This document shows, one piece after another, positions 9,345 to 45,144 of a DNA stretch of 64,000 nt. The first letter of the stretch is position 1. Each line of letters opens with the position of its first letter. The position numbers and the translations under genes were made by a program. The notes beneath the pieces were generated by a model that was not told where the DNA came from, searched no databases, and saw only the letters and a list, made by a program, of their open reading frames with translations. This DNA is from an uncultured bacterium (GTDB lineage: Bacteria; Fidelibacterota; Marinisomatia; SCGC-AAA003-L08; TS1B11): NCBI GenBank assembly GCA_964621455.1, contig CAZULW010000005.1:6705-70704 (forward strand), written 5' to 3'.

Positions 9345-9346
9345 CT

Positions 9347-26494: not shown

Positions 26495-26519
26495 AACTGT
26501 ACTCTCTTTCCGTGCTAAA

Positions 26520-27384: not shown

Positions 27385-27498
27385 TCACCGTCGGGCGAGA
27401 GCCCGGCGCTCCCGCAGCCAGTTACGCAGCATATAGGTCAGCACCATCACCCAGACACTGATGACGCAGGCCAGCAGATAGCCGTGATATTTATACAT
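27385..27498 (-). CDS. ccmD: Heme exporter protein CcmD (37 aa, below the ORF-track cutoff)
   Basis: MYKYHGYLLACVISVWVMVLTYMLRNWLRERRALARR has a single TM helix and a basic tail. It overlaps the ccmC stop by 8 nt. Confidence 0.65.
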   Translation of the reverse strand: MYKYHGYLLACVISVWVMVLTYMLRNWLRERRALARR

Positions 27499-28180
27499 CG
27501 CTCGCCTCCTCGGTTTGGGTGTTGCGCCTGAACTCCAGTTCCGCCACGTGGTGTCGATACAGGACCATATAGATCAGCATGAGTGTGAAGCTGAACAGGG
27601 AGAAGAAGAATATCCTCAGGATGCTGGAGGGCTGCCGGGCCATCTCCATCTGGGGGTGGCTCTGCACTTCGGCGGCCCACCAGGTAACGGCCGTGAGAAT
27701 CAGGGGGATATCGATCACCGCCAGGATAGCGATCACCGCCGCGTAGCGCGAGGCCCGCTCATAAGGCCCGCCGAACGCCCGGACCATAAAATACCCCACG
27801 AAGATGAGGAACAGGACCAGCGTGGTGGTGAGACGCGGCTCCCAGCTCCAGGGTTTCCCCCACATAGGTGTGGCCCAGATCGGCCCGGTGACCAGGATCA
27901 GCAGCGCGAAGAGAGTGCCCACCTCGGCGCCGGCCAGGGACCAGATATCCCATCGGGATCGGCGCGTGACCAGGTAGGCGGCGCCGGCCAGGGCCGTCAG
28001 CAGGTACGCCAGGAAGGCGTTCCAGGCCAGGGGCACGTGGTAGTAAAAGATTTTCTGGGCCATCTCCTGTTCCGGAACCACGGGGGCCACCTTGTAGATA
28101 AGCCACAGGTTAACGATGGCGGTCACCAGGGTAACCGCTAACAGGATTTGGTTACGCACTATACTGTGGAAAGACTGCAT
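27491..28180 (-). CDS. ccmC: Heme exporter protein CcmC
   Basis: WGKPWSWEPRLT (WGxxWxWD-type Trp-rich motif). 6 TM helices. Operon context. Confidence 0.92.
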   Translation of the reverse strand: MQSFHSIVRNQILLAVTLVTAIVNLWLIYKVAPVVPEQEMAQKIFYYHVPLAWNAFLAYLLTALAGAAYLVTRRSRWDIWSLAGAEVGTLFALLILVTGPIWATPMWGKPWSWEPRLTTTLVLFLIFVGYFMVRAFGGPYERASRYAAVIAILAVIDIPLILTAVTWWAAEVQSHPQMEMARQPSSILRIFFFSLFSFTLMLIYMVLYRHHVAELEFRRNTQTEEASDV

Positions 28181-28849
28181 TTATTGCTCCGAAATATAAT
28201 CAAATATGAAGGTGCCCGCTAAGACGAACAGGGCAAAAAAGGTCACCAGGAGCAGGAGCCAGAAGTCCCATTCCCCGAAGGGCCGCCCGGCAAGTGCGGC
28301 GCTGGTGGCCCGGGTGGCGGCGATCAGCAGGGGGGCTAGCAGGGGAAACAGCAGGATGGGCAGCAGCGTTTCACCTGCCGGAGAGCGCAGGCTCATGCCG
28401 GCGATGAGGGTGCCGACGGCGGCGATAGCCAGGTCGGTGATGACGAGAATGAGGGCCAGGGAAGCGGGCGCCCTCAGCAGGGGCATTTCCAGGAATAGTC
28501 CGAACAGTGGCAGGCTCACCAGCTGGGCCGCCAGCAGAAAGACGAAGAACGCCGCCGCTTTGCCCAGGTAGATCGCGCTGCGGTCCACCGGCGCGGTGAG
28601 CAGCAGGGAATAGGCCTCCAGCTCCTTCTCCTGACCGAAGGACCGCAGCAGACCCAGCACCGCGGTGAAGAAGTAAGTCAGCCACATCAGGCCCGGGGTG
28701 AAAGCCCGGAACTGGGCGGTACCGGCGTCGAAGGCGAAGGAGAACAGCAGAATGACCGCCGCGGCGAAGACCACCATAGTCGACAGGCTCTCGCGGGTGC
28801 GCAGCTCCAGACGGAGATCTTTGACGAAGACGGTCCAGAAAGCCATCAC
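28181..28849 (-). CDS. ccmB: Heme exporter protein CcmB
   Basis: 222-aa polytopic membrane protein between ccmA and ccmC. It abuts ccmC with no gap. Confidence 0.9.
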   Translation of the reverse strand: MMAFWTVFVKDLRLELRTRESLSTMVVFAAAVILLFSFAFDAGTAQFRAFTPGLMWLTYFFTAVLGLLRSFGQEKELEAYSLLLTAPVDRSAIYLGKAAAFFVFLLAAQLVSLPLFGLFLEMPLLRAPASLALILVITDLAIAAVGTLIAGMSLRSPAGETLLPILLFPLLAPLLIAATRATSAALAGRPFGEWDFWLLLLVTFFALFVLAGTFIFDYISEQ

Positions 28850-29544
28850 GGAACCTCGCGGCCCAGGTGTGGGAGCAAGTCTCTTTCTCCGGGTGCTGCC
28901 ACGTCCCTGGCAATGATACCCCGGCTGAGGAGGAGCGCCCGGTCCGCCCGGGCCACTCCCCAGCCTAGGTCGTGGCTGGTGAAAAACACCGTCCGGCCCT
29001 GAGACCGCCAGCGCGCCATTGTCTCGCTGAGCAGCTCCGCGCCGTCCACATCCAAGGCCGTCGCGGGCTCGTCCAGCAGGGCCAGTCGCCAGGTAGCCAG
29101 CTCCAGGCGTATCAGTCCCAGACGCTGCAGCATCCCTTCGGAGTAGACCCGCACCGGCTCGCCTTCGCGACCCGCCAGCCCGTAGCGGTCCATGAGGGTT
29201 TGAAACGCCTTTTTGTCCCAGGCCTGCCCGCGCAGCCGGGTGCTGAGCATCAGGTTTTCCCGGGCGGTGAAGGCGGGGTAGAGATTGGGGTGGTGCCCCA
29301 GGTAGACCATGTCCCGCCGCCAGGCGCTGCCAGCAGTGAACAGGGGCCGCCCGTTCAGGCTGGCGGTTCCGTTTTCGGGGTGCATGATGCCGGCCAGGAT
29401 GCGCAGCAGGGTGGTCTTACCGCTGCCATTGCGGCCCGCAAGCAGGACCGCCTCCCCGGCGGCCAGGGAAAATGATACGTCCCGCAGCACCGGGCGCAGG
29501 TGGAAAGATTTGGAAATGTGTTCTGCGGTGAAAAGTTCAGCCAA
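28846..29544 (-). CDS. ccmA: Cytochrome c biogenesis ABC ATPase CcmA
   Basis: Walker A GRNGSGKT, ABC signature-like YSEGMLQRL and Walker B LALLDEP. It overlaps ccmB by 4 nt. Confidence 0.92.
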   Translation of the reverse strand: MAELFTAEHISKSFHLRPVLRDVSFSLAAGEAVLLAGRNGSGKTTLLRILAGIMHPENGTASLNGRPLFTAGSAWRRDMVYLGHHPNLYPAFTARENLMLSTRLRGQAWDKKAFQTLMDRYGLAGREGEPVRVYSEGMLQRLGLIRLELATWRLALLDEPATALDVDGAELLSETMARWRSQGRTVFFTSHDLGWGVARADRALLLSRGIIARDVAAPGERDLLPHLGREVP

Positions 29545-29556
29545 GGGAACAGACGG

Positions 29557-30042
29557 CTAATTCAGCAGTCCCCGGCCGCAGCTGGCACAGAATCGGTCGC
29601 CGGACTGCACCACCGCGCCGCAGCCGGGACAAGTATCCCCCACCGCCGTGCCGCAGCTGCTACAGAACCTGGTGCCGGGTCCGATGAGCGTTCCACAGTC
29701 GGGACAGACGAGCTCCTCAGCGGGTGCCGGTGCGGGGCCTACCGGCGGGACCTGCTCTATCAGCGCACCCTCCAGCTGACGCATGACCTGTGTCACCTCG
29801 GCTAGAAGATCGGCCTGGGTGCGATTGAAGTCCTGTTCATCTATCAGCCCCATCTCCCGCTCGAACTCCACCTCCCGGATCTGCTTGTACAGATTGACCT
29901 TGCGCAGTTCCAGGGCGGTGGCCCGGGTAGCCGCGTCCTCGCCCACCGTCGCCACCTTCTCAGACGCAAACGGTACCAGCACATAATAGGCTGGGCCGAT
30001 AGCGACCAGGATAAGAACAACCAGAGGCAGAAGCGTATCCAT
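29557..30042 (-). CDS. CcmI-N-terminal-like TM module fused to a double zinc ribbon
   Basis: The ATG at 30042 lies next to the ccmH stop. TM helix MDTLLPLVVLILVAIGPAYYVLVPF, then KVNLYKQIREVEFEREMGLIDEQDF (CcmI-like), then CPDCG...RFCSSCG and CPGCG...RFCASCG. Confidence 0.7.
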   Translation of the reverse strand: MDTLLPLVVLILVAIGPAYYVLVPFASEKVATVGEDAATRATALELRKVNLYKQIREVEFEREMGLIDEQDFNRTQADLLAEVTQVMRQLEGALIEQVPPVGPAPAPAEELVCPDCGTLIGPGTRFCSSCGTAVGDTCPGCGAVVQSGDRFCASCGRGLLN

Positions 30043-30043
30043 C

Positions 30044-30520
30044 TCAGATGTCCAGCTCCTGCATTTCCTTGTTGATCTTCTCCAGAAATTCGTTGTCATA
30101 GGGTTTGCGCGCGGCTGGAGCGGCCTGCGGGGCCGGCTGCCCCTTGATCCGGCTGATGAAATAGATCAACAGCAGTCCACCCACCAGGAGGATCAACGGC
30201 GGCATGATGTAGGCCAGCAGGTTGAAACCCCGGGCGCGGGGCCGGGCCAGGATTCGCTCGCCGTAAATGGCCACATACATATCCAGGATTTCCTCCTTGG
30301 TCCTACTTTCCGCCAGTAGCCGGGCAATCTGGGCCTTCACCTGCCGGGCGGCTTCCGAATCGTGGTCTCCGACGGGGCTTCCATAGCAGCAGGGGGCCAT
30401 GATCTCGTATCCCAGCTCGCGCTGCAGAGCTTCCTGGCCCTCTAGGACGGTCGGCTCTTCCTGGCAGACAGCTGCCGCTGCCGGCAAGATAAGCGATAAT
30501 ACCAGAACGATACGGATCAT
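30044..30520 (-). CDS. ccmH: CcmH/NrfF-family protein lacking the canonical CxxC (has a vicinal CC)
   Basis: The ATG at 30520 overlaps the ccmF TGA (ATGA). MAPCCYGSPVGDHDS...YVAIYGERILARP followed by a TM helix. Confidence 0.8.
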   Translation of the reverse strand: MIRIVLVLSLILPAAAAVCQEEPTVLEGQEALQRELGYEIMAPCCYGSPVGDHDSEAARQVKAQIARLLAESRTKEEILDMYVAIYGERILARPRARGFNLLAYIMPPLILLVGGLLLIYFISRIKGQPAPQAAPAARKPYDNEFLEKINKEMQELDI

Positions 30521-32490
30521 GCCAGTTTCTCCTTCAGCCGCCGGTCGGTGCGGCTGGGCCAGATGGCCACCAGGGTGCCGAGGACCGCAATAATGCTCCC
30601 CAGCCATACCATCTGCACCAGGGGATTGATCATGATTTTCAAGGCAACGCTCTGGTTCTCCGTGCTGATTCCGCCCACGATGGCGTACAGGTCCCGCAGG
30701 GGCCGGGAATGAATCGCCACCTCCGAGTGAGGCTGTTGGTTCTGATCGGTGTATATCCGCCGCTCGGGCCTGAGCACGGTCACCGGCCGGTCCCTGCGGC
30801 TTACCGAGAGCTGCGCAATCCAGGCGCTGTGGTTGGACCGTTCCGCCACGTAGTAGCGGTCCAGCGTGAACACATACCCTTTCAGCAAGACAGTTTCTCC
30901 GGGCTTGAGGGCCAGCTCCCGCTCCGTGGTGAAGGCCTTGCCGACAAAGCCGATGAACATAAATAGAACCCCAAGGTGGACGATGGCCCCGCCGTACCGG
31001 CTGCGGTTCTTATCCACCATGTTCCGCAAGGCCGTAAGGGGCGACTCACCGCCGATTCTGCGCCGGGCCCGGATGCCACGCACCGCTTCTATAATGATGC
31101 CCGCCAGCACAAAGGCGACCAGTGCGAAGGTTACCAGTGGATATACCTGCCGCAGACCGAGTAGCATGCCCGCAGCCGCTGCTATGATGGCCGCCGCCAC
31201 CGGCGGTGTGAAGTTCCGTCTCAGGGTCCTCCAGGAGGTGCGCCGCCAGGCCAGCAGGGGACCCACCCCGAGTATCACCAGCAGCAGCAGCCCCATGGGA
31301 ACGGTGGTGCGGTTAAAGTAGGGCGATCCCATGGTGATCTTGGTGCCCCGCACCGCTTCGGACAGAATGGGGAACATGGTGCCCCACAGCACCGCCAGGG
31401 CCAGGGCCACGAAGATCATATTGTTGAAGAGAAATCCGCTCTCGCGGCTGGCGAACGACTCCATGCGGTTCTGCGAAGTCAGTTCACTTCTGCGCAGGAT
31501 CACCAGGGTGACGCAGGTTAGAATGATGACCAGGACAAAGCCGAAGAACCAGATACCCAGTTCGCTGGCGGCGAAGGCGTGAACCGACGAGAGGATGCCG
31601 CTGCGCGTAAGGTACGTACCGAAGATGGTCAGAATGAACGTGGACATGATGAGGATCACGTTCCACAGGCGGAGCATGTTCTTCTTTTCCTGGATACGCA
31701 CCGAGTGGAGGTACGCGGTAGCGGTGAGCCAGGGCAGGAGGGAGGCGTTTTCCACCGGGTCCCAGGCCCAGTAGCCTCCCCAGCCCAGTTCCATGTAAGC
31801 CCACAGGCCGCCCAGGATGATGCCTATCCCCAGGAACATCCAGGGCAGAAGGGTCCAGCGGCGGGTGAAACGGACCCAGGTGGCATCCATGCGCCGGTTG
31901 ACCAGCGCGGCCACGGCAAACGCAAACGGCACTACAAAGCCCACGTATCCCAGATAGAGCACAGGCGGATGTATCAGCATTACCGGATGCTGCAACAGGG
32001 GGTTGAGACCCATGCCGCGGACGGAGACCTCGGCCCCCGGAGGCAAGGGAGTGAAGGGATTCTCGAAAAAATAGGTGACGATCAGGAAAAAGAGCATCAC
32101 CACCGCCAGCACCAGGTTCACCACCGGCATGAGGGACAAGTTACGGCGACGGTTGAGGTAGCCTACCAGGAGGACGTACACGCCCAGCACAGCAAGCCAG
32201 AACAGCAGGGAGCCCTCCATGCCCGCCCACAGACCGGCGAACTTGTAGATGGTAGGGGTAGCGGCGCTGCTGTAGCGGGCCACGTATTCCAGGCCGAAGT
32301 TGCTCGTCAGCAGCTGGTGGGTCAGAGCCAATGTGGCCGCCAGCACCAGCAGTGCCGAGACCCGGAGTCCCCGCTGGGCCCCGACGAAATACCGCCGGTC
32401 GCGGTTAGCCAGGTAGAGAAGGCTTAGAACCAGCGTCAGAGTGCAGAAGATCAGCGCCAGTTGCAGGCAGGTCGAGCCTAGGAGCACCAT
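30517..32490 (-). CDS. ccmF: Cytochrome c-type biogenesis protein CcmF (heme lyase component)
   Basis: 657 aa. WGGYWAWDPVEN Trp-rich motif. Many TM helices. Confidence 0.95.
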   Translation of the reverse strand: MVLLGSTCLQLALIFCTLTLVLSLLYLANRDRRYFVGAQRGLRVSALLVLAATLALTHQLLTSNFGLEYVARYSSAATPTIYKFAGLWAGMEGSLLFWLAVLGVYVLLVGYLNRRRNLSLMPVVNLVLAVVMLFFLIVTYFFENPFTPLPPGAEVSVRGMGLNPLLQHPVMLIHPPVLYLGYVGFVVPFAFAVAALVNRRMDATWVRFTRRWTLLPWMFLGIGIILGGLWAYMELGWGGYWAWDPVENASLLPWLTATAYLHSVRIQEKKNMLRLWNVILIMSTFILTIFGTYLTRSGILSSVHAFAASELGIWFFGFVLVIILTCVTLVILRRSELTSQNRMESFASRESGFLFNNMIFVALALAVLWGTMFPILSEAVRGTKITMGSPYFNRTTVPMGLLLLVILGVGPLLAWRRTSWRTLRRNFTPPVAAAIIAAAAGMLLGLRQVYPLVTFALVAFVLAGIIIEAVRGIRARRRIGGESPLTALRNMVDKNRSRYGGAIVHLGVLFMFIGFVGKAFTTERELALKPGETVLLKGYVFTLDRYYVAERSNHSAWIAQLSVSRRDRPVTVLRPERRIYTDQNQQPHSEVAIHSRPLRDLYAIVGGISTENQSVALKIMINPLVQMVWLGSIIAVLGTLVAIWPSRTDRRLKEKLA

Positions 32491-32499
32491 GGCAGAACT

Positions 32500-32760
32500 T
32501 TATCGTAGAGACCGCTGAGAGCGCAGAGAATGTTTTTCGTCAAGACAATAGAATCTTTTTCTTATCTGGGTCTGTATAATTCTCCGGGTTTTTCTTTTGA
32601 TCCAATCCCATCTCCGCGTACTATGCGATCCTTCGACTACGCTCAGGCTTCGTCGTGAACGTTCGGCTGAGCTCACGTCGAAGCCTCAGCCGAACGGACA
32701 AGCCTCTGTGGTTAGATCTCTTACCGCCTGAATCTATCCCTTCTACACGGCATATACAAC
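32500..32760. repeat. Repeat-laden spacer between ccmE and ccmF, with an 11-bp perfect hairpin
   Basis: gttcggctgag (32661-32671) pairs with ctcagccgaac (32685-32695). The ggctgagctcac block also occurs in attC-like site 2 (14007-14018). Confidence 0.6.
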
Positions 32761-32763
32761 GGT

Positions 32764-33150
32764 TCACTCGACCTCGTAGCGGGAGGCGCACTTGGTCATA
32801 AGGTTGTCCGCCGTGAAAACACCATTGCGGTACTCGCCCTCAATAATTACCTCGGCGCTGTCTTTGAACAGGTCCGGCGTCAGGCCGGAGTAGTGGACCG
32901 GCAGTCCTTTATCACCCTGGATCATAACAAAATCGACACTCAGCCGGTCAGCTGAGTGGACGATGGAGCCCGCTTCCACCAGCCCCCCCAGGCGTAAGCG
33001 GTGCTGTTCCCAGGTATCCTGATTCTCGTGCAATTCCGCAATACTCACGTAGGGCACCTCCTCCTCTTCGGTCCCGATAGTAAGCCAACCGAAGACGATC
33101 AGGGTGGCGGCTACGATGAGAATCACGAACTTGGTCCGTTTACTTTTCAT
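32764..33150 (-). CDS. ccmE: Heme chaperone CcmE, CxxxY-type
   Basis: N-terminal TM anchor and OB-fold-like core (LRLGGLVEAGSI...VHYSGLTPDLFKD). The C-terminus KCASRYE replaces the HxxxY motif. An alternative upstream ATG is at 33192. Confidence 0.9.
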   Translation of the reverse strand: MKSKRTKFVILIVAATLIVFGWLTIGTEEEEVPYVSIAELHENQDTWEQHRLRLGGLVEAGSIVHSADRLSVDFVMIQGDKGLPVHYSGLTPDLFKDSAEVIIEGEYRNGVFTADNLMTKCASRYEVE

Positions 33151-33271
33151 GGGATTAATCCTTATATCGATTTCCTTCGAGATGCCAGTCAAGGTCTTCC
33201 CTTAACGGGCCGATCCTGACACAAGGTTGGTAATTTACGTAGATATCCTTGATCCAACAGGAAATATCAGG

Positions 33272-35251
33272 TCAATTTACCTGTCCGGCGGCCAGACGGG
33301 TCTGCTCCTGGGATGGCAGATCTTCCAACGCCTGCCGGGCGAAGGGGGAGAGGTCGTCGTATACGATTTCGCCCTTACGGTAGCCTGCCAGCTCGCTCTC
33401 CAGCTCCTCGTAGTATCCGGCGTGCTTGTGGCGCCACTCCTCGACGCTCATCTTCCCGGTGACCATCACGCTGCTTCCCGGGTATTCCTCGGGATGGAAG
33501 ATAGTGAAGAAGAGATGCCAGACGACGATGGCCAGCGTGGCCAGCCAAGCTTCCCAGTAGTGCACGGCTTCGGATACCTTGATTAGCCAGACCGGGGTGG
33601 CCTCCCCGAGGATGGTCGGGAACCACAGAATGAAGCCCGTGAGACCCATGACGACCGCCCCCCAGGCCAGGGCCCAGTATTCGATCTTCTGGCCATAGTC
33701 GAACAGGCCGTACTTAACGTCGGGAGGACGCCCCTTCGCAGATGCGCGCATGTTGCGGGAAAAGTCCCTGACATCCCGCCTCAGGGGCAGCATCCGCAGC
33801 AGGTGCTGCCGTCCCCAGGGACTGGCAAGCGCGTAGACCAGGTGCCACGCCGCCACCGCCGCCATGGTCCCGGCCGCGATGCGGTGTATCAGACCGCGGG
33901 CGGTTTCCGTCAGTCCGAGGGAGCCGAGGACCCGCACCCAGCCCGCCTCGGGAAACTTGAGGGCGAACCCGGTGATCGCCAGGATAGTGAAGGAAACCAG
34001 CAGCAGTGTATGCTGCCAGACTTCCTGCACGGAAAAGCGGCGGATGGCCGGTGCAGCCGCTCCACCACCTTCAATGACCCTGGCCATTCCACGTTTGCGC
34101 TGCTTCAGGTAGCCGGTGAAAATGATGCCGTTATGGACCAACATGAAGCCGATGGTCCCGATAATGAGCACCACGTAGATGGTCTGCACGATATCCTCGA
34201 TCGGCGTCTCCCGGATGAGGAGCGAGGAGTGAGTGTAGGCCTGGGCGAACTGGGCGGTGGCGTTGGGATGGCACGTGGCGCAGGTACGTTGCAGGTTGGA
34301 GGGGTGAATGGTGGAGTTCTCGTGCTCCTGGCCGAGAATGGCGTGCACGCCGTGGCAGTCGAAGCAGCTGGCCGCGTCCTCATCACCCCGCAGGACAGCC
34401 AGGCCGTGGTAGCTGTCTCGGTAGGTGGCGGCCACGCCCTCCTGCAGTCCGTATTTCAGGGCCAGTTCATCGTCGGAATGGCACTTCAGACAGGTGTGGT
34501 CGGCCAGATCGCGCTTTTTGATAATGTCGTAGCGGCCGGTGGGGTCGCTGATGGCGTGTTCACCGTGGCAGGAGATGCAGGCCGGCGCGTCCCGAACACC
34601 CCGCTGGAGGGCCAGCCAGTGGTCGCTGCCATGGAATTCCTCGTACTCCTGCACGTGACAATTACCGCAGGTCTCCGCCACGTTCCAGTAATTGATGGTA
34701 GACCGTGAGTGCCGCTGGTTCTGGATGTCGTGGGTCCCGTGGCAGTTGTTGCAGGTAGCGGAGGCATAGCCTGACTCCTCGAGGACGCTGAAATGTATGC
34801 TCTGCTTGTAGCGGGTCACCGGGTTCAGAATGTCGATTTTGTGGCGCTCCACAAGTTCCGGATTGGCATGGCAGCGACCGCAGGTGCTGATCATATTGGC
34901 GGGATGCACTAGCGAGTTGCTGTCATCGGCGGACAGGATCTGGTGGTCGCCGTGGCAGTCGACGCAGGTGGCCACATCCAGCTGCTCCCCTGTCAGCAAC
35001 AGTCCATGTACACTGGCGGAGTGCTCGGCCCATTCATCCTCGTGGCAGCCGCCGCAGGCCTTCTCCTGGGAGAAGGGAGGCAGGGTTTCCTCCTCCACGT
35101 GCAGATCGAGGTCAACTTGCGTGTGGCAGGTTTCGCAGTCGAAGTCCTCGTGCACCGACACTTCGACGGAAACCTCGTGGCAGTCAAGACAAGGACTTTC
35201 TTGCGCCCATAAGGGAATAACCAGAAATAGTATACAAACCAGTTTCGTCAT
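33272..35251 (-). CDS. Fusion of an 11-heme cytochrome c with an FdnI/HydC-type diheme cytochrome b membrane domain (CbcL-like)
   Basis: Signal peptide and 11 CxxCH motifs in the first 340 aa. The TM domain then has RRFSVQEVWQHTLLLVSFTILAITG, IHRIAAG, EYWALAWG and HYWEAWLATLAIVVWH (b-heme His pattern). Confidence 0.9.
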   Translation of the reverse strand: MTKLVCILFLVIPLWAQESPCLDCHEVSVEVSVHEDFDCETCHTQVDLDLHVEEETLPPFSQEKACGGCHEDEWAEHSASVHGLLLTGEQLDVATCVDCHGDHQILSADDSNSLVHPANMISTCGRCHANPELVERHKIDILNPVTRYKQSIHFSVLEESGYASATCNNCHGTHDIQNQRHSRSTINYWNVAETCGNCHVQEYEEFHGSDHWLALQRGVRDAPACISCHGEHAISDPTGRYDIIKKRDLADHTCLKCHSDDELALKYGLQEGVAATYRDSYHGLAVLRGDEDAASCFDCHGVHAILGQEHENSTIHPSNLQRTCATCHPNATAQFAQAYTHSSLLIRETPIEDIVQTIYVVLIIGTIGFMLVHNGIIFTGYLKQRKRGMARVIEGGGAAAPAIRRFSVQEVWQHTLLLVSFTILAITGFALKFPEAGWVRVLGSLGLTETARGLIHRIAAGTMAAVAAWHLVYALASPWGRQHLLRMLPLRRDVRDFSRNMRASAKGRPPDVKYGLFDYGQKIEYWALAWGAVVMGLTGFILWFPTILGEATPVWLIKVSEAVHYWEAWLATLAIVVWHLFFTIFHPEEYPGSSVMVTGKMSVEEWRHKHAGYYEELESELAGYRKGEIVYDDLSPFARQALEDLPSQEQTRLAAGQVN

Positions 35252-35254
35252 ATT

Positions 35255-37780
35255 TCAACCTTGGAAAAATGTACCTATAATTATGAAAATGAGCAGTAGA
35301 AAACCTATTGACAGAAACAGATAGGCACTGGCCAGGAGCAGATATTTGGTCCAGCGAGGCAAGGGGGAAACTTTCAGTTTATCGTATTCGTTGTCAGCAT
35401 CCAGTCGTTCCTTCTCCGTGGGACGTTCCTCGGCAAACCGTTCTTCCGTGAGATAGCCGGTGAAGATGACTTCATCCATGGGGAATGCCCCCGGGCGCAG
35501 GTGGGTATTGAAGAAGTGGACGGTAAAGATAAAAGCTGTAGCCAGCAGGGCTTCCTCGGAATGGATGATGTGAGCTACGTTAATGACCCATCCGGGAAAG
35601 AGCCTGGTGAACGTTTCCGGGAACCAGAGGGTCAGCCCGCTGGAACCGATGATGATCATACCCCAAAAAACGGCGTAGTAGTCAAATTTTTCCCAGTACG
35701 TCCAGCGATCGAACTTGGGTGGACGCTTTAGAGCCCCGATGAAATAGCCAAGATGTTGGTAGAAATCCTTGAAGTCCTTGGGACGGACCACCAGGGAATT
35801 AGGCCCATAGAAGAGGCCCTTCTCTTTCAGCACCAACCAGCGGTACAGTAATAAGAGGACATGAATAATGAATACGCTGACCAGGAGAGTGGCGGCAATG
35901 CGGTGGATGAGGGCAGCAGCCTGTAGGCTGAGGATGTTGTTCACGAACCAGGTGGCCAGGGGCGTATGGCTGTATTTCAAAGGCAGCCCGGTCGTAGCAA
36001 GGGTGAGGAAGGATAGGATCAATCCGAGATGTAGGAGTCGCTGAATCAGATGGAAGCGCTTGATTCGGTGCTTTGTCTTGACTTGGGGCGGTTTCTTTCC
36101 CTCGAATAAGCGCCGTATCAGCAGCCGGATGAGCCACAGGAGGGTATGGACACCGAAGATAATCATCACCGAGACCAGCAGCCACCGCATGAAGGTGTCC
36201 ACGCCTATAAGAATGGGATTTTCCTCGTGTTCCATGGGGTTGTAATGTTGCAGGTAGGATACGAAGTTTATGTTGGCGTCCTCATGGCACTGGGTACAGG
36301 TGTTCAGTATGTTCTGCTTACTGATGGTGGACTTGGGATCGTCGGCGGGCAGGACGCTATGGTTGTCATGGCACGAGGCGCAGGTGGCGAAATCGGTTCC
36401 CTGGTAGCCCAGCTGATAGACCTGCCCGTGATAAGTACTTTGATAGCCGGATACTACTTCCGGGCTGAGCTGGAACCGGAGGATGATTTCCCGGTTGCTG
36501 TGGCACGAGGCGCACAGGTCAACGATGGCCTTCCCTTTCAGGCTTTCCTCGGTTTTGGGGATGAACCGTTCGCCGTGACAGGTGGTGCAGGTGGGGGCTT
36601 CGGGATGGCCCTTGGCGGCGCTGGTCCCGTGAGAGGAACCTACCCAGGCGGCATGTTCTTCAGGATGGCACGCTTTGCATTCCCGTTTGATGCCGGTGAA
36701 AGCCGGATGCTCCGGCGCCCTGAAGTGGTACTGATGGCACTCGCCGCAGTTGACCGGCTCCCCGGCCCGGGCGGACTCGATCTTCTCGCCGTGGATCACC
36801 ATATGGGCTTCTTCCGGGCGGGCCAGCAACCCCTCCGCGTGACATAACAGGCATACGTTCGCCAGTCCGGTTTCGAAAATGGATGAGTGGGCGGTGGTCA
36901 TATTCGTGGAGTGCCCCACATGGCAAGCTACGCAGGTCTCCAGACGCGGGTCGTCGCCCTCGCGGGGACGGTGAATGGAAACCTCGTAGCCCGCATGACA
37001 GCGGGTACAGGTCAGATCCAGCCTGGCCACCGATAAAAGACTGTTGGGATCCCGGGGAGACAGAACCTGGTGCCTGGCATGGCAGTCGGAACAGACCGGG
37101 GCCTTCAAATTGCCCTGCTCGAGTTCCCGGAAGTGCTGTGAATCGGTGTAATTGGCCACCTCCCGCTCATGGCAGACGTTGCACGACTCCACCAGGTGCA
37201 TCTTCCACTGGTGGGGCGTGTACTGACCCTTCTCCATCTTGAAGTGCGGATTGTGGCACGAAACACAGGTGACCTCCTGTGTGACCTCATCGGCTTTCCA
37301 GTGCCGGGAGGCCAGGAAGTCTTCCAGCACATCCTGATGGCATACGCCGCACACCTGCCGCGGGTGCCCGACCCACGACACCTCGTGCCGACCGTGGCAG
37401 TCGGAGCAGTTGGGGATGGAAGTGTAGCCCTTCTGCATCAGGGGGCCGAAGAAGCCCTCCACAAAGACCGCCTGCTCTTCTTCGTGGCAAGACCCGCAGT
37501 CCGGCAGGACCAGGCGTTCCCGGTGCGGCCAGTCGTCCACACCGGCCAGTTCGGTGTGGCAGTCGACACAGGCGAAATCCGCATGCGGGCTGTCCGCCAG
37601 GTGCTCACTGGTGACATACAGCGAGAGCTCAATCCCGTACCGGACCACTTTATGGTCGGGATCGTCATGGCAGGTCTCGCAGGTCTCGTTGTCCTGGGCA
37701 TGCAAGGGGAACAGCATGAGGAGCACCAGGGAAAGGCCCAGGGTAAAGGGGCGTATGTGACCGGCTGAAAATCCAATCAT
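35255..37780 (-). CDS. Fusion of a 17-heme cytochrome c with an FdnI/HydC-type cytochrome b membrane domain (CbcL-like, expanded)
   Basis: Signal peptide and 17 CxxCH motifs in about 500 aa. The TM domain then has IKRFHLIQRLLHLGLILSFLTLATTG, IHRIAATL, YWEKFDYYAVFWG and HIIHSEEALLATAFIFTVH. Confidence 0.9.
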   Translation of the reverse strand: MIGFSAGHIRPFTLGLSLVLLMLFPLHAQDNETCETCHDDPDHKVVRYGIELSLYVTSEHLADSPHADFACVDCHTELAGVDDWPHRERLVLPDCGSCHEEEQAVFVEGFFGPLMQKGYTSIPNCSDCHGRHEVSWVGHPRQVCGVCHQDVLEDFLASRHWKADEVTQEVTCVSCHNPHFKMEKGQYTPHQWKMHLVESCNVCHEREVANYTDSQHFRELEQGNLKAPVCSDCHARHQVLSPRDPNSLLSVARLDLTCTRCHAGYEVSIHRPREGDDPRLETCVACHVGHSTNMTTAHSSIFETGLANVCLLCHAEGLLARPEEAHMVIHGEKIESARAGEPVNCGECHQYHFRAPEHPAFTGIKRECKACHPEEHAAWVGSSHGTSAAKGHPEAPTCTTCHGERFIPKTEESLKGKAIVDLCASCHSNREIILRFQLSPEVVSGYQSTYHGQVYQLGYQGTDFATCASCHDNHSVLPADDPKSTISKQNILNTCTQCHEDANINFVSYLQHYNPMEHEENPILIGVDTFMRWLLVSVMIIFGVHTLLWLIRLLIRRLFEGKKPPQVKTKHRIKRFHLIQRLLHLGLILSFLTLATTGLPLKYSHTPLATWFVNNILSLQAAALIHRIAATLLVSVFIIHVLLLLYRWLVLKEKGLFYGPNSLVVRPKDFKDFYQHLGYFIGALKRPPKFDRWTYWEKFDYYAVFWGMIIIGSSGLTLWFPETFTRLFPGWVINVAHIIHSEEALLATAFIFTVHFFNTHLRPGAFPMDEVIFTGYLTEERFAEERPTEKERLDADNEYDKLKVSPLPRWTKYLLLASAYLFLSIGFLLLIFIIIGTFFQG

Positions 37781-37871: not shown

Positions 37872-38672
37872 CTAGTTCCCAAATACATTCTTTACGCCGT
37901 TGATATGCTTTTGTGTATCGATGATCGTTCGGTGGTCCTGGCTGCTTACGACGCCGGAGTGGCATAGGCCACAGGCACTGGATGCGATGTGGCCTGCAGG
38001 AGGGAGTGCGTGGCAGGTGCCGCACAGATTGCCAGTGACCGGTGTGGTCCAGGTCCAGGTGGAGTCATTTCCCGTAACCCCATTGAGGTCAAAGGCGCCG
38101 TGACAATAAACGTCGCTGCAGGTCTTGGCAGAGCGCTCCCAGACCGGGGAGAGTGTGCCCTTGGCAGTGGCCAAGCTGTCAAAGGTCACCTCGGCGTAGT
38201 AGGGGGTGTCGTCGTCGATATGCCCCGCCGCCCAGACGGAATCGGGCACCACATGACAGGAAGCGCAGGAGACGTTAGAGGTCAAACTATGGGCGGCCGT
38301 GTAGTGGCTGGTGTGCATCCCGACGGTCACCCGATCGGAGCTCGTCCGGCCTTTCACATCAACGAACGGATCGCTGTCAAGGTATCCGTGGCAGTTATCG
38401 CAGGCGTAGATGGCATCCAGAGCGGACTGGCCTTGGGAAGCGGTGTGGCATTCATCGCTGCTGCATCCATCCACCTCATCCGTCCCATTCAGCTCGGCAC
38501 CGTGACATGCCTGGCATGAGGTAAGGTCGTAGTTAATGACCTGGAGCTTTTCAATATGTCCCGTTTCCCAAGCTTCAGGGTGCGGGCTGTCATCCTCTTC
38601 GAATTCGGTGCACCCCCAGGCCGCGAGCACCAGCAAAACTGCGATTCCGCCAAGCGGTCGTCTAGTAATCAT
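37872..38672 (-). CDS. Lipoprotein multiheme cytochrome (5 CxxCH plus 2 CxxxxCH; Geobacter CxxxxCH...CxxCH-type)
   Basis: Lipobox LAAWGC. Motifs CQACH, CDNCH, CASCH, CGTCH, CGLCH plus CSSDECH and CSDVYCH. Confidence 0.88.
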   Translation of the reverse strand: MITRRPLGGIAVLLVLAAWGCTEFEEDDSPHPEAWETGHIEKLQVINYDLTSCQACHGAELNGTDEVDGCSSDECHTASQGQSALDAIYACDNCHGYLDSDPFVDVKGRTSSDRVTVGMHTSHYTAAHSLTSNVSCASCHVVPDSVWAAGHIDDDTPYYAEVTFDSLATAKGTLSPVWERSAKTCSDVYCHGAFDLNGVTGNDSTWTWTTPVTGNLCGTCHALPPAGHIASSACGLCHSGVVSSQDHRTIIDTQKHINGVKNVFGN

Positions 38673-39609
38673 GACACCCCAGCCTCAGACAGGTGTTGTC
38701 TCTGGCCGGTTCGTGACAGACCACGCAGTAGTCAGGCCGGTCCAGCCCTTCCTGGGCGTGAAAGCCACAGGCCGTACACTCTACTTCGGGAGGGGCCGCC
38801 CCGGAGGGGTCGTCGTGGCTGCCACTGAGAGCCCAGAAGGGGTTATTGTGGCTCAGGGGCATGACCCCCTTGGCAAGGTGACAGCTCTGGCACTCCTGGG
38901 GGATAGCGTGACAGGTGCTGCACTCTTTCTCAAAACTCAGAAAGTCTCCGGCATGGACGAATTCATAGTTGGCCGGATGGACCTGCTTTTCCAGCTGGGC
39001 TTGGGCGTGGCAGCCCTCGCAGTCGGTCTGCTGGTGACACATGGCACAATCATCGCCGGTGGAGCCATGGACAAACAGCCCGTGGTTCTGGGTCCAGCCC
39101 AGGCCGTGGCTGGCCGGCAGCTTGCCCTCCAGGGAGGCATGGCAGGCATAGCAACCGGCATCGGTGAGGGGCACGGTGTGGCAGTCCATGCAAGGTTCCA
39201 TCTTTGGCGGTGTCCGGGGCACCAGGGCTTCGCTGCTAGCCGTGGTGGGATGGCACTGGCTGCATTCGGTCTGCGGCAGGTGGGTCTGATGCGGGAACAG
39301 CAGACCGGGAGTGGGCTGCCATGTGTAAGTCGTCGGATCATCGGGCCGGGTGTGGCAGGCGGAACACTCCTCCGAGGCCGTGTCACCGTCATGGCAGGCG
39401 CTGCATTGGTCCATGATCGGCAGCAGGTCGTGGGTTAAGCGGGTACTGGTCTCCACCCCTTCGTGACACTCACCGCATTCCAGGCCCATATCCTCGACGT
39501 GGGTAACGTGGGGGAAGATAATGCGATCGCGGGGTTCCTGCGCGGTGACCAGGACGGCCTGCAGCCCCGCGTATGCCAGCAGCCCGTAGAGCAGCAGACT
39601 AGAACGCAT
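38662..39609 (-). CDS. Periplasmic dodecaheme-type cytochrome c (11 CxxCH plus 1 CxxxxCH)
   Basis: Signal peptide MRSSLLLYGLLAYAGLQAVLVTAQ. Densely spaced heme motifs of c3/c7 type. 11-nt overlaps with both neighbouring genes. Confidence 0.9.
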   Translation of the reverse strand: MRSSLLLYGLLAYAGLQAVLVTAQEPRDRIIFPHVTHVEDMGLECGECHEGVETSTRLTHDLLPIMDQCSACHDGDTASEECSACHTRPDDPTTYTWQPTPGLLFPHQTHLPQTECSQCHPTTASSEALVPRTPPKMEPCMDCHTVPLTDAGCYACHASLEGKLPASHGLGWTQNHGLFVHGSTGDDCAMCHQQTDCEGCHAQAQLEKQVHPANYEFVHAGDFLSFEKECSTCHAIPQECQSCHLAKGVMPLSHNNPFWALSGSHDDPSGAAPPEVECTACGFHAQEGLDRPDYCVVCHEPARDNTCLRLGCHDY

Positions 39610-40867
39610 AGCTCACTTGCAAACCAACACGCCCATCCTGGTTGAAGAGACGGTTGCGGGTAAACTGGGTGAACAGCCGATAACTGAAACGGCCGGTGCT
39701 GGATCCTTGCAGCCAGAACGTTGCGGCCAGGGAAGACCGGGTAGCCCGGGCCTGAGCAGCATCCAAGATACCCGCGGAAGTCATGTGGGAGACAGCATCG
39801 GAATTTTCATCGAAAAGGGTGTAGCTGCCGGCGCCGATACTCCCTCCGGCCTGCAGGTGACCAGACAGGCGGCGCTGGCCGCTGAGCTGCACGTAGTGGC
39901 CCTCGTAGATCGATTGGTCGTTGGCCTGCCAGGTGAACATCAGGCCGCCCCAGGCCAGTTGCGCCTTGAGGTACCTATCGTCGCGATTACCCAAACGCTG
40001 ACTGAGGCTCACCCTCAGCTGCAATCCTTTAAATGGCGACCAATGCGCGCCCGCCGAGAGGTTTTGCCGGGGGGCGAAAGTTGGGTTGGAGACCCAGGGG
40101 TAAGGGTTGAGGGACAGCTGTCCCGCATAGCGGTACTGGACGTATACGATGCCCGTCTGCGTCAGACGCACCTGGGTCCTGAGCCGGATCTTCTCGGGAT
40201 TTTTAGCCGTGAGGTTAAAGGCCAGGTCGGCAACCTGGGTCAGTCGCGACCCAAGTCTACGGCGCAGAGAGCCGCCAAGGTAGAAGTTGAGCGTGCCGGT
40301 CATATGGGTGGCCCAGGCCTGCAGGCCGTAGCGGCTGGAGCCGTTGGTGAGCTGGAACATGCCGCCAGCCATCGGCTTGCCGGCCTCACCGTAGTCGGTG
40401 CGCAGTTCGGTATCCGGCGTCTGGCCGGCGTAGAGGGTCAGCTGCCGGCTGTTGCGGAAGGTGCCGGTATGCCTGCCCAGGGCAATGCCGTCGAAGCGGG
40501 CGGTCTGGAGGTTGTTCCAGAGGAATTGCCGGCCCAGGGTCACCTTCCAGTCGGGTGTGATCCCGGCTTGAATCTGTCCGGAGTAGAGGCGCAGCCCGGC
40601 CGGGCGGGTGAGAGTTGCCGGGGTGATCTCACCCAGGAAATGCCAACTCACCCGTTGGGTGAGCTGGTGCCGCACGGTGAGCTGTCCCCGCCAGACTAGG
40701 GATTCCGTCGCCGTGATGTCGCTGCGGGGGTAGACGAACGTGCCTCGCAGGACGGCTTCCGGCTTGGCGGCCTGAACCGTAGAACCTGCAAGGAGCATCC
40801 CAACCAGGAATGCCGGGATGGAGCGTAGGGCGAATGAACGGCTTTTATGTGGTGAAAACGATTCCAT
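39599..40867 (-). CDS. Outer-membrane beta-barrel (porin-like) protein, first gene of the cytochrome cluster
   Basis: Signal peptide ...STVQAAKP. Alternating hydrophobic/polar strands rich in Y/G/R/Q/T. Terminal ...GLQVSYAF aromatic OMP signature. Confidence 0.8.
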   Translation of the reverse strand: MESFSPHKSRSFALRSIPAFLVGMLLAGSTVQAAKPEAVLRGTFVYPRSDITATESLVWRGQLTVRHQLTQRVSWHFLGEITPATLTRPAGLRLYSGQIQAGITPDWKVTLGRQFLWNNLQTARFDGIALGRHTGTFRNSRQLTLYAGQTPDTELRTDYGEAGKPMAGGMFQLTNGSSRYGLQAWATHMTGTLNFYLGGSLRRRLGSRLTQVADLAFNLTAKNPEKIRLRTQVRLTQTGIVYVQYRYAGQLSLNPYPWVSNPTFAPRQNLSAGAHWSPFKGLQLRVSLSQRLGNRDDRYLKAQLAWGGLMFTWQANDQSIYEGHYVQLSGQRRLSGHLQAGGSIGAGSYTLFDENSDAVSHMTSAGILDAAQARATRSSLAATFWLQGSSTGRFSYRLFTQFTRNRLFNQDGRVGLQVSYAF

Positions 40868-41296: not shown

Positions 41297-42382
41297 GTGA
41301 TTAATTTCACCAGGAATCCCAAACTATATTTCATTCCAGCCCTCATTGTCGGGATGACAGTCATGTTTTTCGGCTGTGAAGGCCCTGAAGGTCCCGCGGG
41401 CTCTGAGGGTCTGCAAGGCCTGCCGGGGGCTGACGCCAATGAAACCTGCAAAGTCTGTCATAGTGATGGGGACGAGCCGATTAAGGTACGACAGTTACAA
41501 TGGGCGGCCTCTACTCATGCTACAGGCGGTAATTTTGAACGGAATGATACCGATTGTGCCCCTTGCCATACCAGCCAGGGCTTTCTGGAAGTCGTGGCAA
41601 CGGGAGCAGACACAACCGTAGCAGACATTTCAAATCCAGCCCCGCAGAATTGCCGCACGTGTCACCAAATTCATAGTACGTACACGTGGGCCGATTTTGC
41701 CTTGACAGATACGACTGCATTTACCCCCAGGATTGATCTTACAGCATCCATTGACATTGGAAAAGGAAACCTTTGTGCCAGGTGTCATCAACCGAGGTTG
41801 CCTGATCCCATGCCGACAGTTGGTGGCAGTGATGTTGTCATAGGTTCCAAATATTGGGGACCCCACTACGGTGCCCAAGGCGCCATTCTCGCGGGAGTTG
41901 GCGGTTATGAAGTTACGGGCTCCCCTTATACAAATAGCTCCCATACCGCCGCGATAACTGACGGGTGTGTTACCTGCCACATGGCGGATGCATATGGTAT
42001 TAAAGCTGGCGGGCATACGATGAATGTATCGTATGATTACTATGGCACTGTAGTCAATCAAGCAGGATGTCTAGCAGCGTGCCATCCAGAAGGCGAAGAT
42101 GCGCTTGAAACAAAAATCGCAGATAGAAAAGCGGCAATTGACGCTTTGCTTGCTGATGTAAAGGCGCTCTTAATAACCGCCGATGCCCTGGATGATACCG
42201 ACCACGTTGTCCCGGGTACGCTAACCGCGCTCAACGCTGGTGCCGTGGTCAACTACCTTCTGGTTTTGAAAGATAGAAGCGGAGGTGCGCATAACTTCGC
42301 TTATGCCAGCGCACTATTAACAAACACAAAAGTGGCCCTAGAAGCTGCACCTGCTGCTCCAAAAAGGGTTGCTTTTAGGTAA
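41297..42382 (+). CDS. Lipoprotein multiheme cytochrome with a short collagen-like (GXY)6 segment after the lipobox
   Basis: AGGAGG RBS and GTG start. Lipobox MFFGC followed by E-GPEGPAGSEGLQGLPGAD. Motifs CKVCH, CAPCH, CRTCH, CARCH, CVTCH plus CLAACH. Confidence 0.88.
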   Translation: MINFTRNPKLYFIPALIVGMTVMFFGCEGPEGPAGSEGLQGLPGADANETCKVCHSDGDEPIKVRQLQWAASTHATGGNFERNDTDCAPCHTSQGFLEVVATGADTTVADISNPAPQNCRTCHQIHSTYTWADFALTDTTAFTPRIDLTASIDIGKGNLCARCHQPRLPDPMPTVGGSDVVIGSKYWGPHYGAQGAILAGVGGYEVTGSPYTNSSHTAAITDGCVTCHMADAYGIKAGGHTMNVSYDYYGTVVNQAGCLAACHPEGEDALETKIADRKAAIDALLADVKALLITADALDDTDHVVPGTLTALNAGAVVNYLLVLKDRSGGAHNFAYASALLTNTKVALEAAPAAPKRVAFR

Positions 42383-43187: not shown

Positions 43188-44228
43188 ATGCTGTTCAAGA
43201 CTCTGAGCAAAAAGGAATTCAGGAATTTGGTCGAGCTGCTCCTCGCAGACACCGAGGTCATAGCACCCAAGCAGATCGGAGTGAACGAGAAGGGCAAACC
43301 CATTCACCATTATCTGCCGGTCCAGAAGTTCGAGGAGATTGATCTTGATTACGAGATAACCGAATACTCAGCCAAGTCTTACTTCCTCCCCTTTCGTGAA
43401 AATCTATCTTCCTGTCACTTCGAGGAGGACGACTGGACCCAGGAAATCCACTACCGGCTCCAGCCCAGGGTACTCATGGGTCTGCATTCCTGCGACATCA
43501 ACGCCTTGCTCAAGCTGGACAAGGTCCTTGCCGGTGACCGCTTCCCCAGCCCTTATTTCATCTCGCGGCGCAGGAATACATTCATCATAGGGATTGATCA
43601 TAACCCCTGCGAGGAGGGCTTCTGCCGATCGGTGGGAGCGGACGTGGTAACCCACGGTTTCGATCTCTATCTCACAGATCTCGGCGACCGATACTTCATA
43701 GCCATCAATTCCGATCACGGCTATAATATCCTTATGCAGGTCGATGCTAAGGATACTACCGGGCAGGATAACAAGGACTACCTGGAAGCGCGCCAACGGA
43801 TCGCCAGCAAATTCGAGCCCCTGAATATGCACAACCTGCCCAATCTGATGGACATTGAGTTTGAGTCGGAGGTCTGGAAGAAATGGGGCTGGCAGTGCCT
43901 GAGCTGCGGGAGCTGCGCCATGGTCTGCCCAACCTGCTACTGCTACGGAGTGGACGAGCAGGTTTCCATGGACGGGAAGGAGGGCGTAAAAGTCAAACAA
44001 CTCTATTCCTGTAATCTGCTCGATTTTGCCACGGTGGCCGGGGGACACAACTTCCGGGCTGACCGGGAAACCCGATTGAAATACCGCTATTATCACCAGC
44101 ACCGGGGATTCGTGGAGACCTACGAGGAACCCTTATGCGTGGGGTGCAACCGCTGCGGCCGCGTATGCCTGGCCGGGATCAACCCGCCCGGCATAATCCG
44201 GGACCTGCAAACCGAGGATCAAGTATGA
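43188..44228 (+). CDS. Group 3b NiFe hydrogenase (sulfhydrogenase) beta subunit, 4Fe-4S protein (HydB/AsrA-like)
   Basis: [17 protein letters not shown] and [11 protein letters not shown] motifs. First gene of a four-gene B-G-D-A order. Confidence 0.85.
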
Positions 44229-45133
44229 CCGAACTTCTCCATCCGTATGAGGTCACGCAGGAGGCTGATATCATGCAGCCCCTGGATTTCAACCGCAGGA
44301 GCCGCCTCAAGCACGTTGATCAGACCTTCAAGAGCGAGATCATCAACATTATCCGCCTGACCGAAATGGAAAAGCTCTTTCAGGTAAGGATTCTCGATGA
44401 TGCCGCCAGGGAGCGTTTCACCTTCCGCCCCGGCCAGTTCGTTATGGTGGAAGTCCCCGGCTATGGCGAGATACCCATATCCATATCCAGTTCACCTTCC
44501 CACAAGGGTTTCATCGAGCTGTGTATCCGCAAGGTGGGACTGGTCACCACCATTCTACACAAGTCCCGGCGGGGTGTCCCCATCGGAATCCGCGGCCCTT
44601 TCGGCACCCATTTCCCGATAGAAAAAATGCGCGGATGCAACATCCTCCTGATTGCGGGGGGACTGGGTCTGGCCCCGCTCCGGGCACCGATCTTCCAGGT
44701 AATCGAAAACCGGTCGAACTTCAAGAATGTGCATATCCTCTATGGAACCAAACAACCAAGTATGCTGCTTTTCAATTACCAGTATGAGGAATGGGACCGG
44801 ATCGCTGATATCGACCTGAAAGTCATAGTGGAGCAGGGTGACGAATCCTGGAGGGGTCCGGTAGGGATGATTACCGATCTGCTCGACGAAGTTGACATTG
44901 CCCCCCGGGAGACCTATGCCATCATCTGCGGCCCGCCGGTGATGTTCAAGTTTGTCTGCAACCACCTCACGCAGGAGGGGATACCGATGAACCGGATGTT
45001 CGTATCATTGGAACGCCGGATGCACTGCGGGATGGGCAAGTGTTGCCGGTGCAACATCGGATCAACTTATACCTGCCTTTCCGGGCCGGTCTTTGACTAC
45101 TGGAGCGTCATAAACCTCAAAGAAGCTATCTGA
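44225..45133 (+). CDS. Hydrogenase gamma subunit, FAD/NAD(P)-binding with C-terminal 2Fe-2S (HydG/AsrB-like)
   Basis: ATGA overlap at 44225. [11 protein letters not shown]-binding-like motif, [15 protein letters not shown]-binding motif, and C-terminal [10 protein letters not shown]. Confidence 0.88.
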
Positions 45134-45144
45134 GGGATGATGAT

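Follow-up and report, generated by a model that had tools for sequence, protein, structure and literature searches.

Two tandem genes of the minus strand, A841 and B659, were analysed in a stretch of 64,000 nucleotides from contig CAZULW010000005.1 of an uncultured Fidelibacterota bacterium (the window, to which all coordinates refer unless another locus is named). Both proteins probably belong to the CbcL/MtrH/MtoC family, as paralogs that would act at the inner membrane as quinol:multiheme-cytochrome c oxidoreductases in a route of extracellular electron transfer. Their architecture, homology, ligand conservation, fold and synteny point to this assignment. A841 (35255-37780, minus strand) has 841 aa and comprises a predicted Sec signal peptide, a 17-heme c domain (aa ~30-500), a linker helix TM0 (aa ~521-559), four FdnI-like transmembrane (TM) helices TM1-4 and a C-terminal helix TM5, with a cytochrome b domain assigned to the CbcL type. 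B659 (33272-35251, minus strand) has 659 aa and comprises a predicted Sec signal peptide, an 11-heme c domain (aa ~20-345), TM0 and then a four-helix cytochrome b resembling FdnI, which is assigned to a sister 'B-type', together with a cytoplasmic helical tail. Residues are numbered 1-based from the start Met. The TGA stop of A841 (35255-35257) and the ATG start of B659 (35249-35251) leave a gap of 3 nt.

A sequence-only reading of the window had described two tandem genes 3 nt apart, each with a signal peptide, 17 and 11 CxxCH motifs respectively and a C-terminal cytochrome b of 4-5 TM helices carrying a diheme His pattern. Its gene positions and spacing agreed with the open reading frame check and its heme counts with the motif scan, which revealed no CxxxCH, CxxxxCH or CxxCK variants in either protein. 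Both N-termini, read as sequence, consist of a short basic and hydrophobic stretch ending in AQ followed by D or E, and this AQ(D/E) junction is retained in the consensus sequences of the A841 and B659 homologs. These N-termini are taken to be Sec signal peptides, which would place the heme-c domain of both proteins in the periplasm. In the heme-c domain, His outside the motifs with a conservation of at least 90% number 15 in A (17 hemes) and 11 in B (11 hemes), and the c hemes of both are apparently mostly bis-His. After the last heme motif, hydropathy and the helices of the AlphaFold2 (AF2) models give the order TM0, a basic loop and four FdnI-aligned helices. The total is six TM helices in A841, with an extra C-terminal helix, and five in B659, which replaces the earlier count of 4-5. 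Foldseek with both AF2 models gave no significant PDB match for the heme-c domains. The A841 heme-c domain scored 85.9 bits against the DmsE/MtrA decaheme model TIGR03508, below the cut-off of 192.2 and over a partial region only. Membership of the MtrA/DmsE decaheme family, for which a soluble decaheme protein of ~300 aa is expected, was rejected for A841 on this cut-off.

The membrane domains were then compared with known cytochromes b. The Pfam family Ni_hydr_CYTB (PF01292) was matched by A841 with 33.7 bits and by B659 with 50.4 bits, both above the gathering score of 30.1. The formate dehydrogenase gamma model TIGR01583 gave 39 bits (E=7e-10) for A841 and 61 bits (E=2e-16) for B659, both below its cut-off of 115.85. 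A PDB sequence search aligned B659 with the whole chain of FdnI (1kqf_C, E=1e-5) with His at all four heme-ligand positions, while the A841 membrane domain alone retrieved nothing, even at E<=10. The ligands of FdnI are reportedly H18, H57, H155 and H169 (Jormakka 2002). The equivalent positions are H584 in A841 and H414 in B659 on TM1, H626 and H456 on the periplasmic side of TM2, H740 and H564 on the periplasmic side of TM4, and H755 and H579 on the cytoplasmic side of TM4. In a membrane-domain alignment of 341 sequences from many phyla, these positions are His in 191-194 of the 194 A-type sequences, the non-His cells all being alignment gaps, and in 147 of the 147 B-type sequences. The pattern pointed out earlier (RF..H, IHRIAA, EYW..WG, H..E..L) is present and conserved, with the four ligand positions His throughout the aligned residues.

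The AF2 models had a mean pLDDT of 87.7 for B659 and 81.1 for A841, and the sole significant PDB match of each in Foldseek was FdnI 1kqf_C, with probability 1.00 and target TM-scores of 0.82 (B659) and 0.77 (A841). The A841 model also matched the cytochrome b of E. coli Hyd-1 with probability 0.95. The loop before TM3 of FdnI, NAGQK, carries menaquinone-site residues and aligns with DYGQK in B659 and TYWEK in A841; by analogy, we infer that a quinone site working as in FdnI may be present in both. The likeness to FdnI, the gamma subunit of E. coli formate dehydrogenase-N (1KQF chain C), lies in the four-helix diheme b fold, the four His ligands and the cytoplasmic quinone-site loop motif. FdnI, however, is a separate 217-aa subunit docking on an iron-sulfur (FeS)/molybdopterin enzyme, whereas the partner in A841 and B659 is a covalently fused heme-c chain, the bundle is preceded by the extra TM0, and no formate dehydrogenase or uptake-hydrogenase catalytic genes adjoin.

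Two other assignments were rejected on these features. An FdnI/HydC anchor of a formate dehydrogenase or NiFe hydrogenase, expected as a subunit of its own with ~200-240 aa, does not fit a domain fused to heme-c with no fdnGH or hyaAB beside the genes and a TIGR01583 score below the cut-off. A quinol dehydrogenase of the NapC/NirT/CymA or ImcH kind, in which an N-terminal anchor precedes a NapC-type tetraheme core and b heme is absent, does not fit a C-terminal, b-type anchor, and no Pfam Cytochrom_NNT match was found at E<=0.01.

Geobacter CbcL is the one family member that has been studied experimentally. It carries nine bis-His hemes with an apparent midpoint of -194 mV, passes electrons to PpcA and is needed for acceptors between about -100 and -210 mV (PMC13591261, PMC9129911); its mechanism and low-potential role have also been described (10.1101/2022.08.31.506072, PMC13591261). 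The optical character recognition (OCR) text of the CbcL alignment (PMC9129911 supplement) was used as bait and gave partial Geobacteraceae, Desulfuromonadales and Desulfuromonas proteins, so that the comparison covers the b domain and not the heme-c domain. Against the CbcL-clade fragment P0243, the b domain of A841 showed 47% identity over 230 aa (E=2e-61) and B659 showed 31% identity (E=3e-26). Multiple alignment revealed blocks common to A841 and the CbcL clade, namely WTYWEKFD, HS(D/E)EALLAT and FIFTVHFFNTH, and the sixth helix is common to them likewise. On these shared blocks and this helix, the b domain of A841 is classed as CbcL-type, thereby supporting the CbcL-type architecture that had been proposed for the pair. 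B659 is classed as carrying a sister type nearer to FdnI, because its TIGR01583 score is higher (61 vs 39 bits) and the PDB sequence search finds FdnI for B659 only.

The proteins share with CbcL (GSU0274, Geobacter sulfurreducens) the signal peptide, the periplasmic and apparently bis-His multiheme c domain, the linker helix, the FdnI/HydC-type b domain and, in A841, the sixth C-terminal helix. They differ in heme number, which is 9 in CbcL compared to 17 in A841 and 11 in B659, and B659 has another b-domain type and just five TM helices. The host here is Fidelibacterota-like and the genes lie in a porin-cytochrome/ccm operon, whereas cbcL in Geobacter is presumably a stand-alone gene.

Zhong & Shi 2018 (PMC6295460) described CbcL/MtrH/MtoC homologs in 15 phyla. 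The proteins have 3-23 CxxCH and 416-1034 aa, most of them with six TM helices, and the b-heme His are conserved; five TM helices are counted there in four members and 4-5 in a few. A841 and B659 agree with this description in the exported multi-CxxCH domain, the same-chain C-terminal HydC/FdnI-like b domain, the TM His ligands, the TM number and, via the fragments, the CbcL similarity. An exhaustive HMMER search with the A841 membrane domain gave 2089 clusters at 50% identity, 382 of them at E<=1e-30, and the 130 Met-starting proteins among the 150 best-scoring relatives carry 0-22 CxxCH with modes at 9 and 11. Given the published 3-23 and the 0-22 counted here, 17 and 11 hemes fall inside known variation. 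The claim that 'far more hemes' marked an unusual extension of CbcL was therefore not upheld, as the family already included a 19-heme clade. Table S2 of PMC6295460 contains Caldithrix abyssi Cabys_319 (WP_006928296.1), which has 19 motifs in 920 aa, as well as Ignavibacteria proteins with the same motif number, such as OGU58019.1.

In the genome scan, the nearest relatives of A841 outside Fidelibacterota were 19-heme proteins with 29-34% full-length identity (E 1e-154 to ~1e-121). Their CxxCH spacing equals that of Cabys_319 within one residue, and the proteins of loci L054 and L018 differ from it at 1 of 18 intervals. These homologs resemble A841 in the A-type b domain (204-286 bits to A841 vs 85-124 bits to B659), the six TM helices and, often, a B-type partner. 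They differ in having 19 hemes in ~920-950 aa with regular repeat spacing, whereas A841 has 17 hemes and a spacing altered mid-chain. A841 and B659 are additions to a described family, and their architecture is not new.

The alignment also revealed two membrane His beyond the four FdnI-equivalent ligands. The first lies on TM0 (A841 H545, codon ~36146-36148; B659 H373, codon ~34133-34135) and is His in 341 of 341 sequences. The second lies on TM2, 14 residues below the periplasmic-side ligand (A841 H640, codon ~35861-35863; B659 H470, codon ~33842-33844; all on the minus strand), and is His in 337 of 341. Judged by helix position, both lie roughly level with the heme on the cytoplasmic side. 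The six membrane His could suffice for a third bis-His b heme, or the extra two could form part of the quinol site. The TM0 His is common to A841, B659 and a CbcL-clade fragment, whereas the lower TM2 His, invariant or nearly so in A and B, is not conserved in the CbcL clade, and the idea of a third b heme is weakened thereby.

The relation between the two genes was analysed in 80 species-level genome loci collected with A841, in which membrane domains were typed according to how they scored against the A and the B domain. A841 and B659 are collinear with 28% identity (E=2e-62). The membrane domains split cleanly into an A-type with 17, 19 or 21 hemes and a B-type with 9-19 hemes. A B-type gene was present within the fetched flank in 32 of the 80 loci and within 400 nt in 24. 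The pairs occur in Fidelibacterota, Calditrichota, Bacteroidota, Acidobacteriota, Ignavibacteria/Chlorobiota, Latescibacterota, a KSB1-like metagenome-assembled genome (MAG), Woeseiaceae and others. The low identity together with the linkage across many phyla indicates that the two genes form an old pair, often linked, which did not arise by local duplication. The description of the proteins as present 'in duplicate' was thus misleading, and A841 and B659 are better described as old paralogs with distinct b-domain types.

This linkage raises the question whether A and B act as a single unit, a heteromeric complex of the inner membrane in which two b domains are packed together and two heme-c arms extend, which is possible and rated somewhat unlikely. 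They may instead be two parallel entry points, perhaps specific for different redox potentials as the sequence-only reading had proposed. The gap of 3 nt here and of 3-20 nt in four tightly spaced Fidelibacterota-type loci (L001, L004, L005, L010), the co-occurrence in so many phyla and the persistence of two distinct b-domain types in all of them would agree with such a complex. The order, however, is A before B in Fidelibacterota and mostly the reverse elsewhere, the genes of eight pairs diverge or converge, and 60% of the loci have no B-type neighbour. In L002 (12564-17309), a marine Marinimicrobia contig, the B position after the A homolog is taken by a NapC/NirT-like protein of 662 aa that has a single TM helix, at the N-terminus, and 17 CxxCH. 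Genes for a multiheme cytochrome (247 aa), an FeS protein with four clusters and NrfD come after it. Geobacter CbcL also functions without such a partner, according to the literature. A second A-type copy (795 aa by open reading frame call, 16 CxxCH) was observed in L006 (CP070787.1 1033683-1055701), on the same Fidelibacterota chromosome as the A-B pair locus L004 and far from it, and no B-type neighbour was detected for it in L006.

In four loci the heme-c and b parts are separate neighbouring genes, a 10-19-heme gene followed by a 230-280-aa A- or B-type b gene (L063 8683-10693; L074 8722-10666; L065 9851-12844; L083 9959-12085), which suggests fusion or fission events inside the family. 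These relatives recall CbcBA and other split complexes of b and multiheme c in having adjacent genes for the two parts. A841 and B659 differ from these in being single polypeptides, and the comparison concerns the two-subunit layout and not the CbcB sequence.

The gene cluster around the pair was mapped next. On the minus strand the order is E422, D315, C266, A841, B659 and the ccm genes, which is in accordance with the earlier statement that the pair follows a porin-cytochrome trio. E422 (39599-40867) is a presumed outer-membrane beta-barrel (porin) on the basis of its signal peptide, the lack of Cys, a C-terminal ...VSYAF and synteny; it matched no Pfam family. D315 (38662-39609) is a periplasmic cytochrome with 11 CxxCH and one CxxxxxCH, presumed to be an MtrA/OmaB-like barrel insert. 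C266 (37872-38672) is a lipoprotein-like cytochrome (...LAAWGC) and presumed surface component, with 5 CxxCH, one CX4CH and one CX5CH; it includes a Geobacter-type CX4CH...CXXCH domain. E422 and D315 overlap by 11 nt, as do D315 and C266. Directly downstream of B659 lie the System I cytochrome c maturation genes (27491-33192, minus strand): ccmE (32764-33192), ccmF (30517-32490), ccmH (30044-30607), a double zinc-ribbon protein gene (29557-30099), ccmA (28846-29544), ccmB (28181-28849) and a putative ccmC (27491-28180) assigned by operon order and sequence reading.

The identical order including the ccm genes was found in the Fidelibacterota genome CP070638.1 (L001). The order of barrel, 11-heme cytochrome, lipoprotein cytochrome and A occurs also in a Marinimicrobia contig of marine origin, whose A shows just 57% identity. 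A D315 homolog adjoins a barrel gene in L001 and L008-L010 and is present without a barrel match in L002 and L007. The trio upstream of A841 resembles the porin-cytochrome conduits of Geobacter (Pcc OmbB-OmaB-OmcB) and Shewanella (MtrCAB) in its barrel, periplasmic multiheme and lipoprotein cytochrome. It differs in that the barrel E422 has no significant family match and in that the DmsE/MtrA model is matched, below its cut-off, by the A841 heme-c domain and not by D315. In its layout the cluster corresponds to a porin-cytochrome conduit with quinol oxidases of the inner membrane feeding it. A promoter and terminator scan of the cluster gave nothing above the shuffle background.

In the proposed route, for which heme occupancy, the quinone site, the direction and the partners are presumed, TM0 would return the chain to the cytoplasmic face and the FdnI-like four-helix bundle would then hold two b hemes. 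Menaquinol would be oxidised on the cytoplasmic side, at a site of the FdnI type, with the protons released inside, and the electrons would cross the membrane via heme bC and heme bP and pass along the c-heme chain. From there they would reach D315 in the barrel and the surface lipoprotein cytochrome, which would make a complete route of extracellular electron transfer with its own Ccm maturation genes. As has been argued for CbcL (10.1101/2022.08.31.506072), such a geometry would conserve little or no energy at this step and suit low-potential acceptors. The gene context suggests that menaquinol oxidation here may likewise feed low-potential extracellular acceptors.

The same module might also run in reverse, taking up electrons and reducing quinone in an FdnI-like proton-motive loop. 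In this form, electrons from an extracellular or periplasmic donor such as Fe(II), a cathode-like mineral or a syntrophic partner would pass through the conduit to menaquinone and build a proton motive force, as in Fdn-N and as proposed for MtoC. This inward direction is considered unlikely. The FdnI fold with its quinone-site loop on the N side has the geometry of a quinone-reductase redox loop, and homologs of CbcL/MtrH/MtoC are present in Fe(III) reducers and Fe(II) oxidisers alike (PMC6295460). The window, however, gave no sign of lithotrophic iron oxidation (no Cyc2), and the neighbouring genes, for a NiFe hydrogenase resembling group 3 and a protein like ADP-forming acyl-CoA synthetases, fit an anaerobic organotroph. 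The direction itself is not readable from sequence, as was also concluded in PMC6295460.

A bolder form of the outward route is regarded as improbable. In this form the A/B pair would be an ancient two-component inner-membrane module and not a set of redundant oxidases, and its membrane part may hold more than the two FdnI hemes; its six invariant His, including one on the fusion-specific TM0, would be enough for a quinol site of a new kind or for a third b heme. In addition, the arm of 17 hemes may dock directly on the periplasmic end of the conduit without soluble carriers, in a phylum that none of the papers found in the searches connects with extracellular electron transfer. The spacing is ~8-9 Å per heme in MtrA and OmcS, and it is conceivable that a linear 17-heme arm of up to ~140 Å could bridge the periplasm, as the sequence-only reading had suggested. 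No PpcA-like small multiheme gene was found in the 64-kb window.

A still less probable reading, considered very doubtful, is that the long heme chains serve a periplasmic role, namely charge storage or the reduction of soluble metals, sulfur or nitrogen species, and not export across the outer membrane. The spread of 0-22 hemes among the relatives counted above would fit a tunable reservoir or adaptor, and the other quinone modules in the window (ACIII-like, Rieske/cytochrome b with a 9-heme cytochrome, FeS-NrfD) may share periplasmic partners. Against this role, the linkage to the barrel, the periplasmic 11-heme and the lipoprotein cytochromes is tight and conserved, and the motif scan gave no heme motif of catalytic type, neither CxxCK nor a high-spin site.

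The integrity of the two fusions was also analysed, as an assembly error had been raised as a caveat. The databases contain 1263 relatives of A841 and more than 3700 of B659. Among the matches listed, 17 CxxCH are present in 102 of 109 A841 homologs of at least 780 aa and 11 CxxCH in 35 of 36 B659 homologs of 600-700 aa; B659 relatives of ~800 aa, mostly from Ignavibacteriota/Melioribacter, have 16 motifs. The full-length homologs come from many independent assemblies, including the chromosome-level Fidelibacterota MAGs CP070638.1 and CP070787.1. The closest named relatives are Fidelibacterota/Neomarinimicrobiota, A841 being 82% identical to its homolog in CP070787.1 and B659 83% to that in CP070638.1, which by itself would very probably place the window in this phylum. 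The DNA repeats within both genes are just 19-37 nt long and 62-89% identical, reflecting CxxCH codons. A chimera joined through CxxCH-rich repeats has next to no probability, since the full architecture with its length and heme count is conserved across independent assemblies and long repeats are absent, and the caveat is thereby removed.

Several points weigh against A841 and B659 being outward-acting quinol oxidoreductases of this family. The likeness to CbcL rests on metagenomic fragments found through an OCR alignment and not on the GSU0274 sequence itself. B659 has five TM helices compared to the usual six of the family, and the A-type quinone-site loop has Glu in place of the FdnI Gln. 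The TM0 and lower TM2 His are unexplained by a plain diheme FdnI model, and E422 is a presumed barrel. The PDB sequence searches and Foldseek gave no solved structure of any family member.

Other features of the window were recorded beside the cluster. F361 (41297-42382, plus strand) is a divergently transcribed lipoprotein-like cytochrome with 5-6 hemes and a region like MtrC/MtrF domain II/IV. In loci of Bacteroidota, Chlorobiota and Ignavibacteria (L018, L021, L022, L026, L033, L037, L053, L081), homologs of ~340-390 aa with 6 hemes are encoded ~3-4 kb upstream of A-type genes. The zinc-ribbon insertion in the ccm operon is present also in Fidelibacterota CP070638.1 (L001 14962-15435). A CusCBA-type heavy-metal resistance-nodulation-division (RND) efflux system (19980-26626, minus strand), whose membrane fusion protein has a heavy-metal-binding domain (HMBD), adjoins the ccm genes, and an RND pump with an HMBD protein also flanks the ccm genes in L001.

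The plus strand carries the other quinone modules and the hydrogenase. The first module consists of an FeS protein (30-602) and NrfD (599-1822). The alternative complex III (ACIII)-like set consists of a pentaheme cytochrome (1994-2560), a molybdopterin-like protein (2539-5055), an FeS protein (5057-5740), NrfD (5742-7085) and a class-I-type cytochrome with 4 CxxCH (7363-8592). Next come a Rieske protein (8838-9344), a cytochrome b of bc type (9212-10417) and a cytochrome c with 9 hemes (10399-11658), and this set looks like a Rieske/cytochrome b complex in which a multiheme cytochrome replaces c1. The four-gene cytoplasmic NiFe hydrogenase (43188-47162), group-3-like, has FeS, FAD/NAD, small and large subunits.

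The literature searches found no paper naming Marinimicrobia with both multiheme cytochromes and extracellular electron transfer. A Caldithrix abyssi paper contains 'Marinimicrobia' and 'multiheme' but describes no such cluster, and other papers with both terms exist; the Melioribacter and Caldithrix genome papers do not discuss these proteins. Two points go beyond the literature examined, namely the A/B pairing in ~40% of the 80 loci and the two extra near-invariant membrane His. Modest value is added by three things, namely a host in the Fidelibacterota, an operon that is complete, and the conservation of the A/B pairing with its extra His. The survey presents the CbcL-type membrane domain as an adaptor in wide use, whose A- and B-type forms travel together in many phyla, which leaves the established picture of how such proteins work unchanged. 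For a relative of the Fidelibacterota (formerly Marinimicrobia/SAR406), which are abundant in oceans and subsurface, the cluster would represent a complete, self-contained electron-export gene set with two quinol-linked heme wires, an outer-membrane conduit and the heme-attachment machinery.

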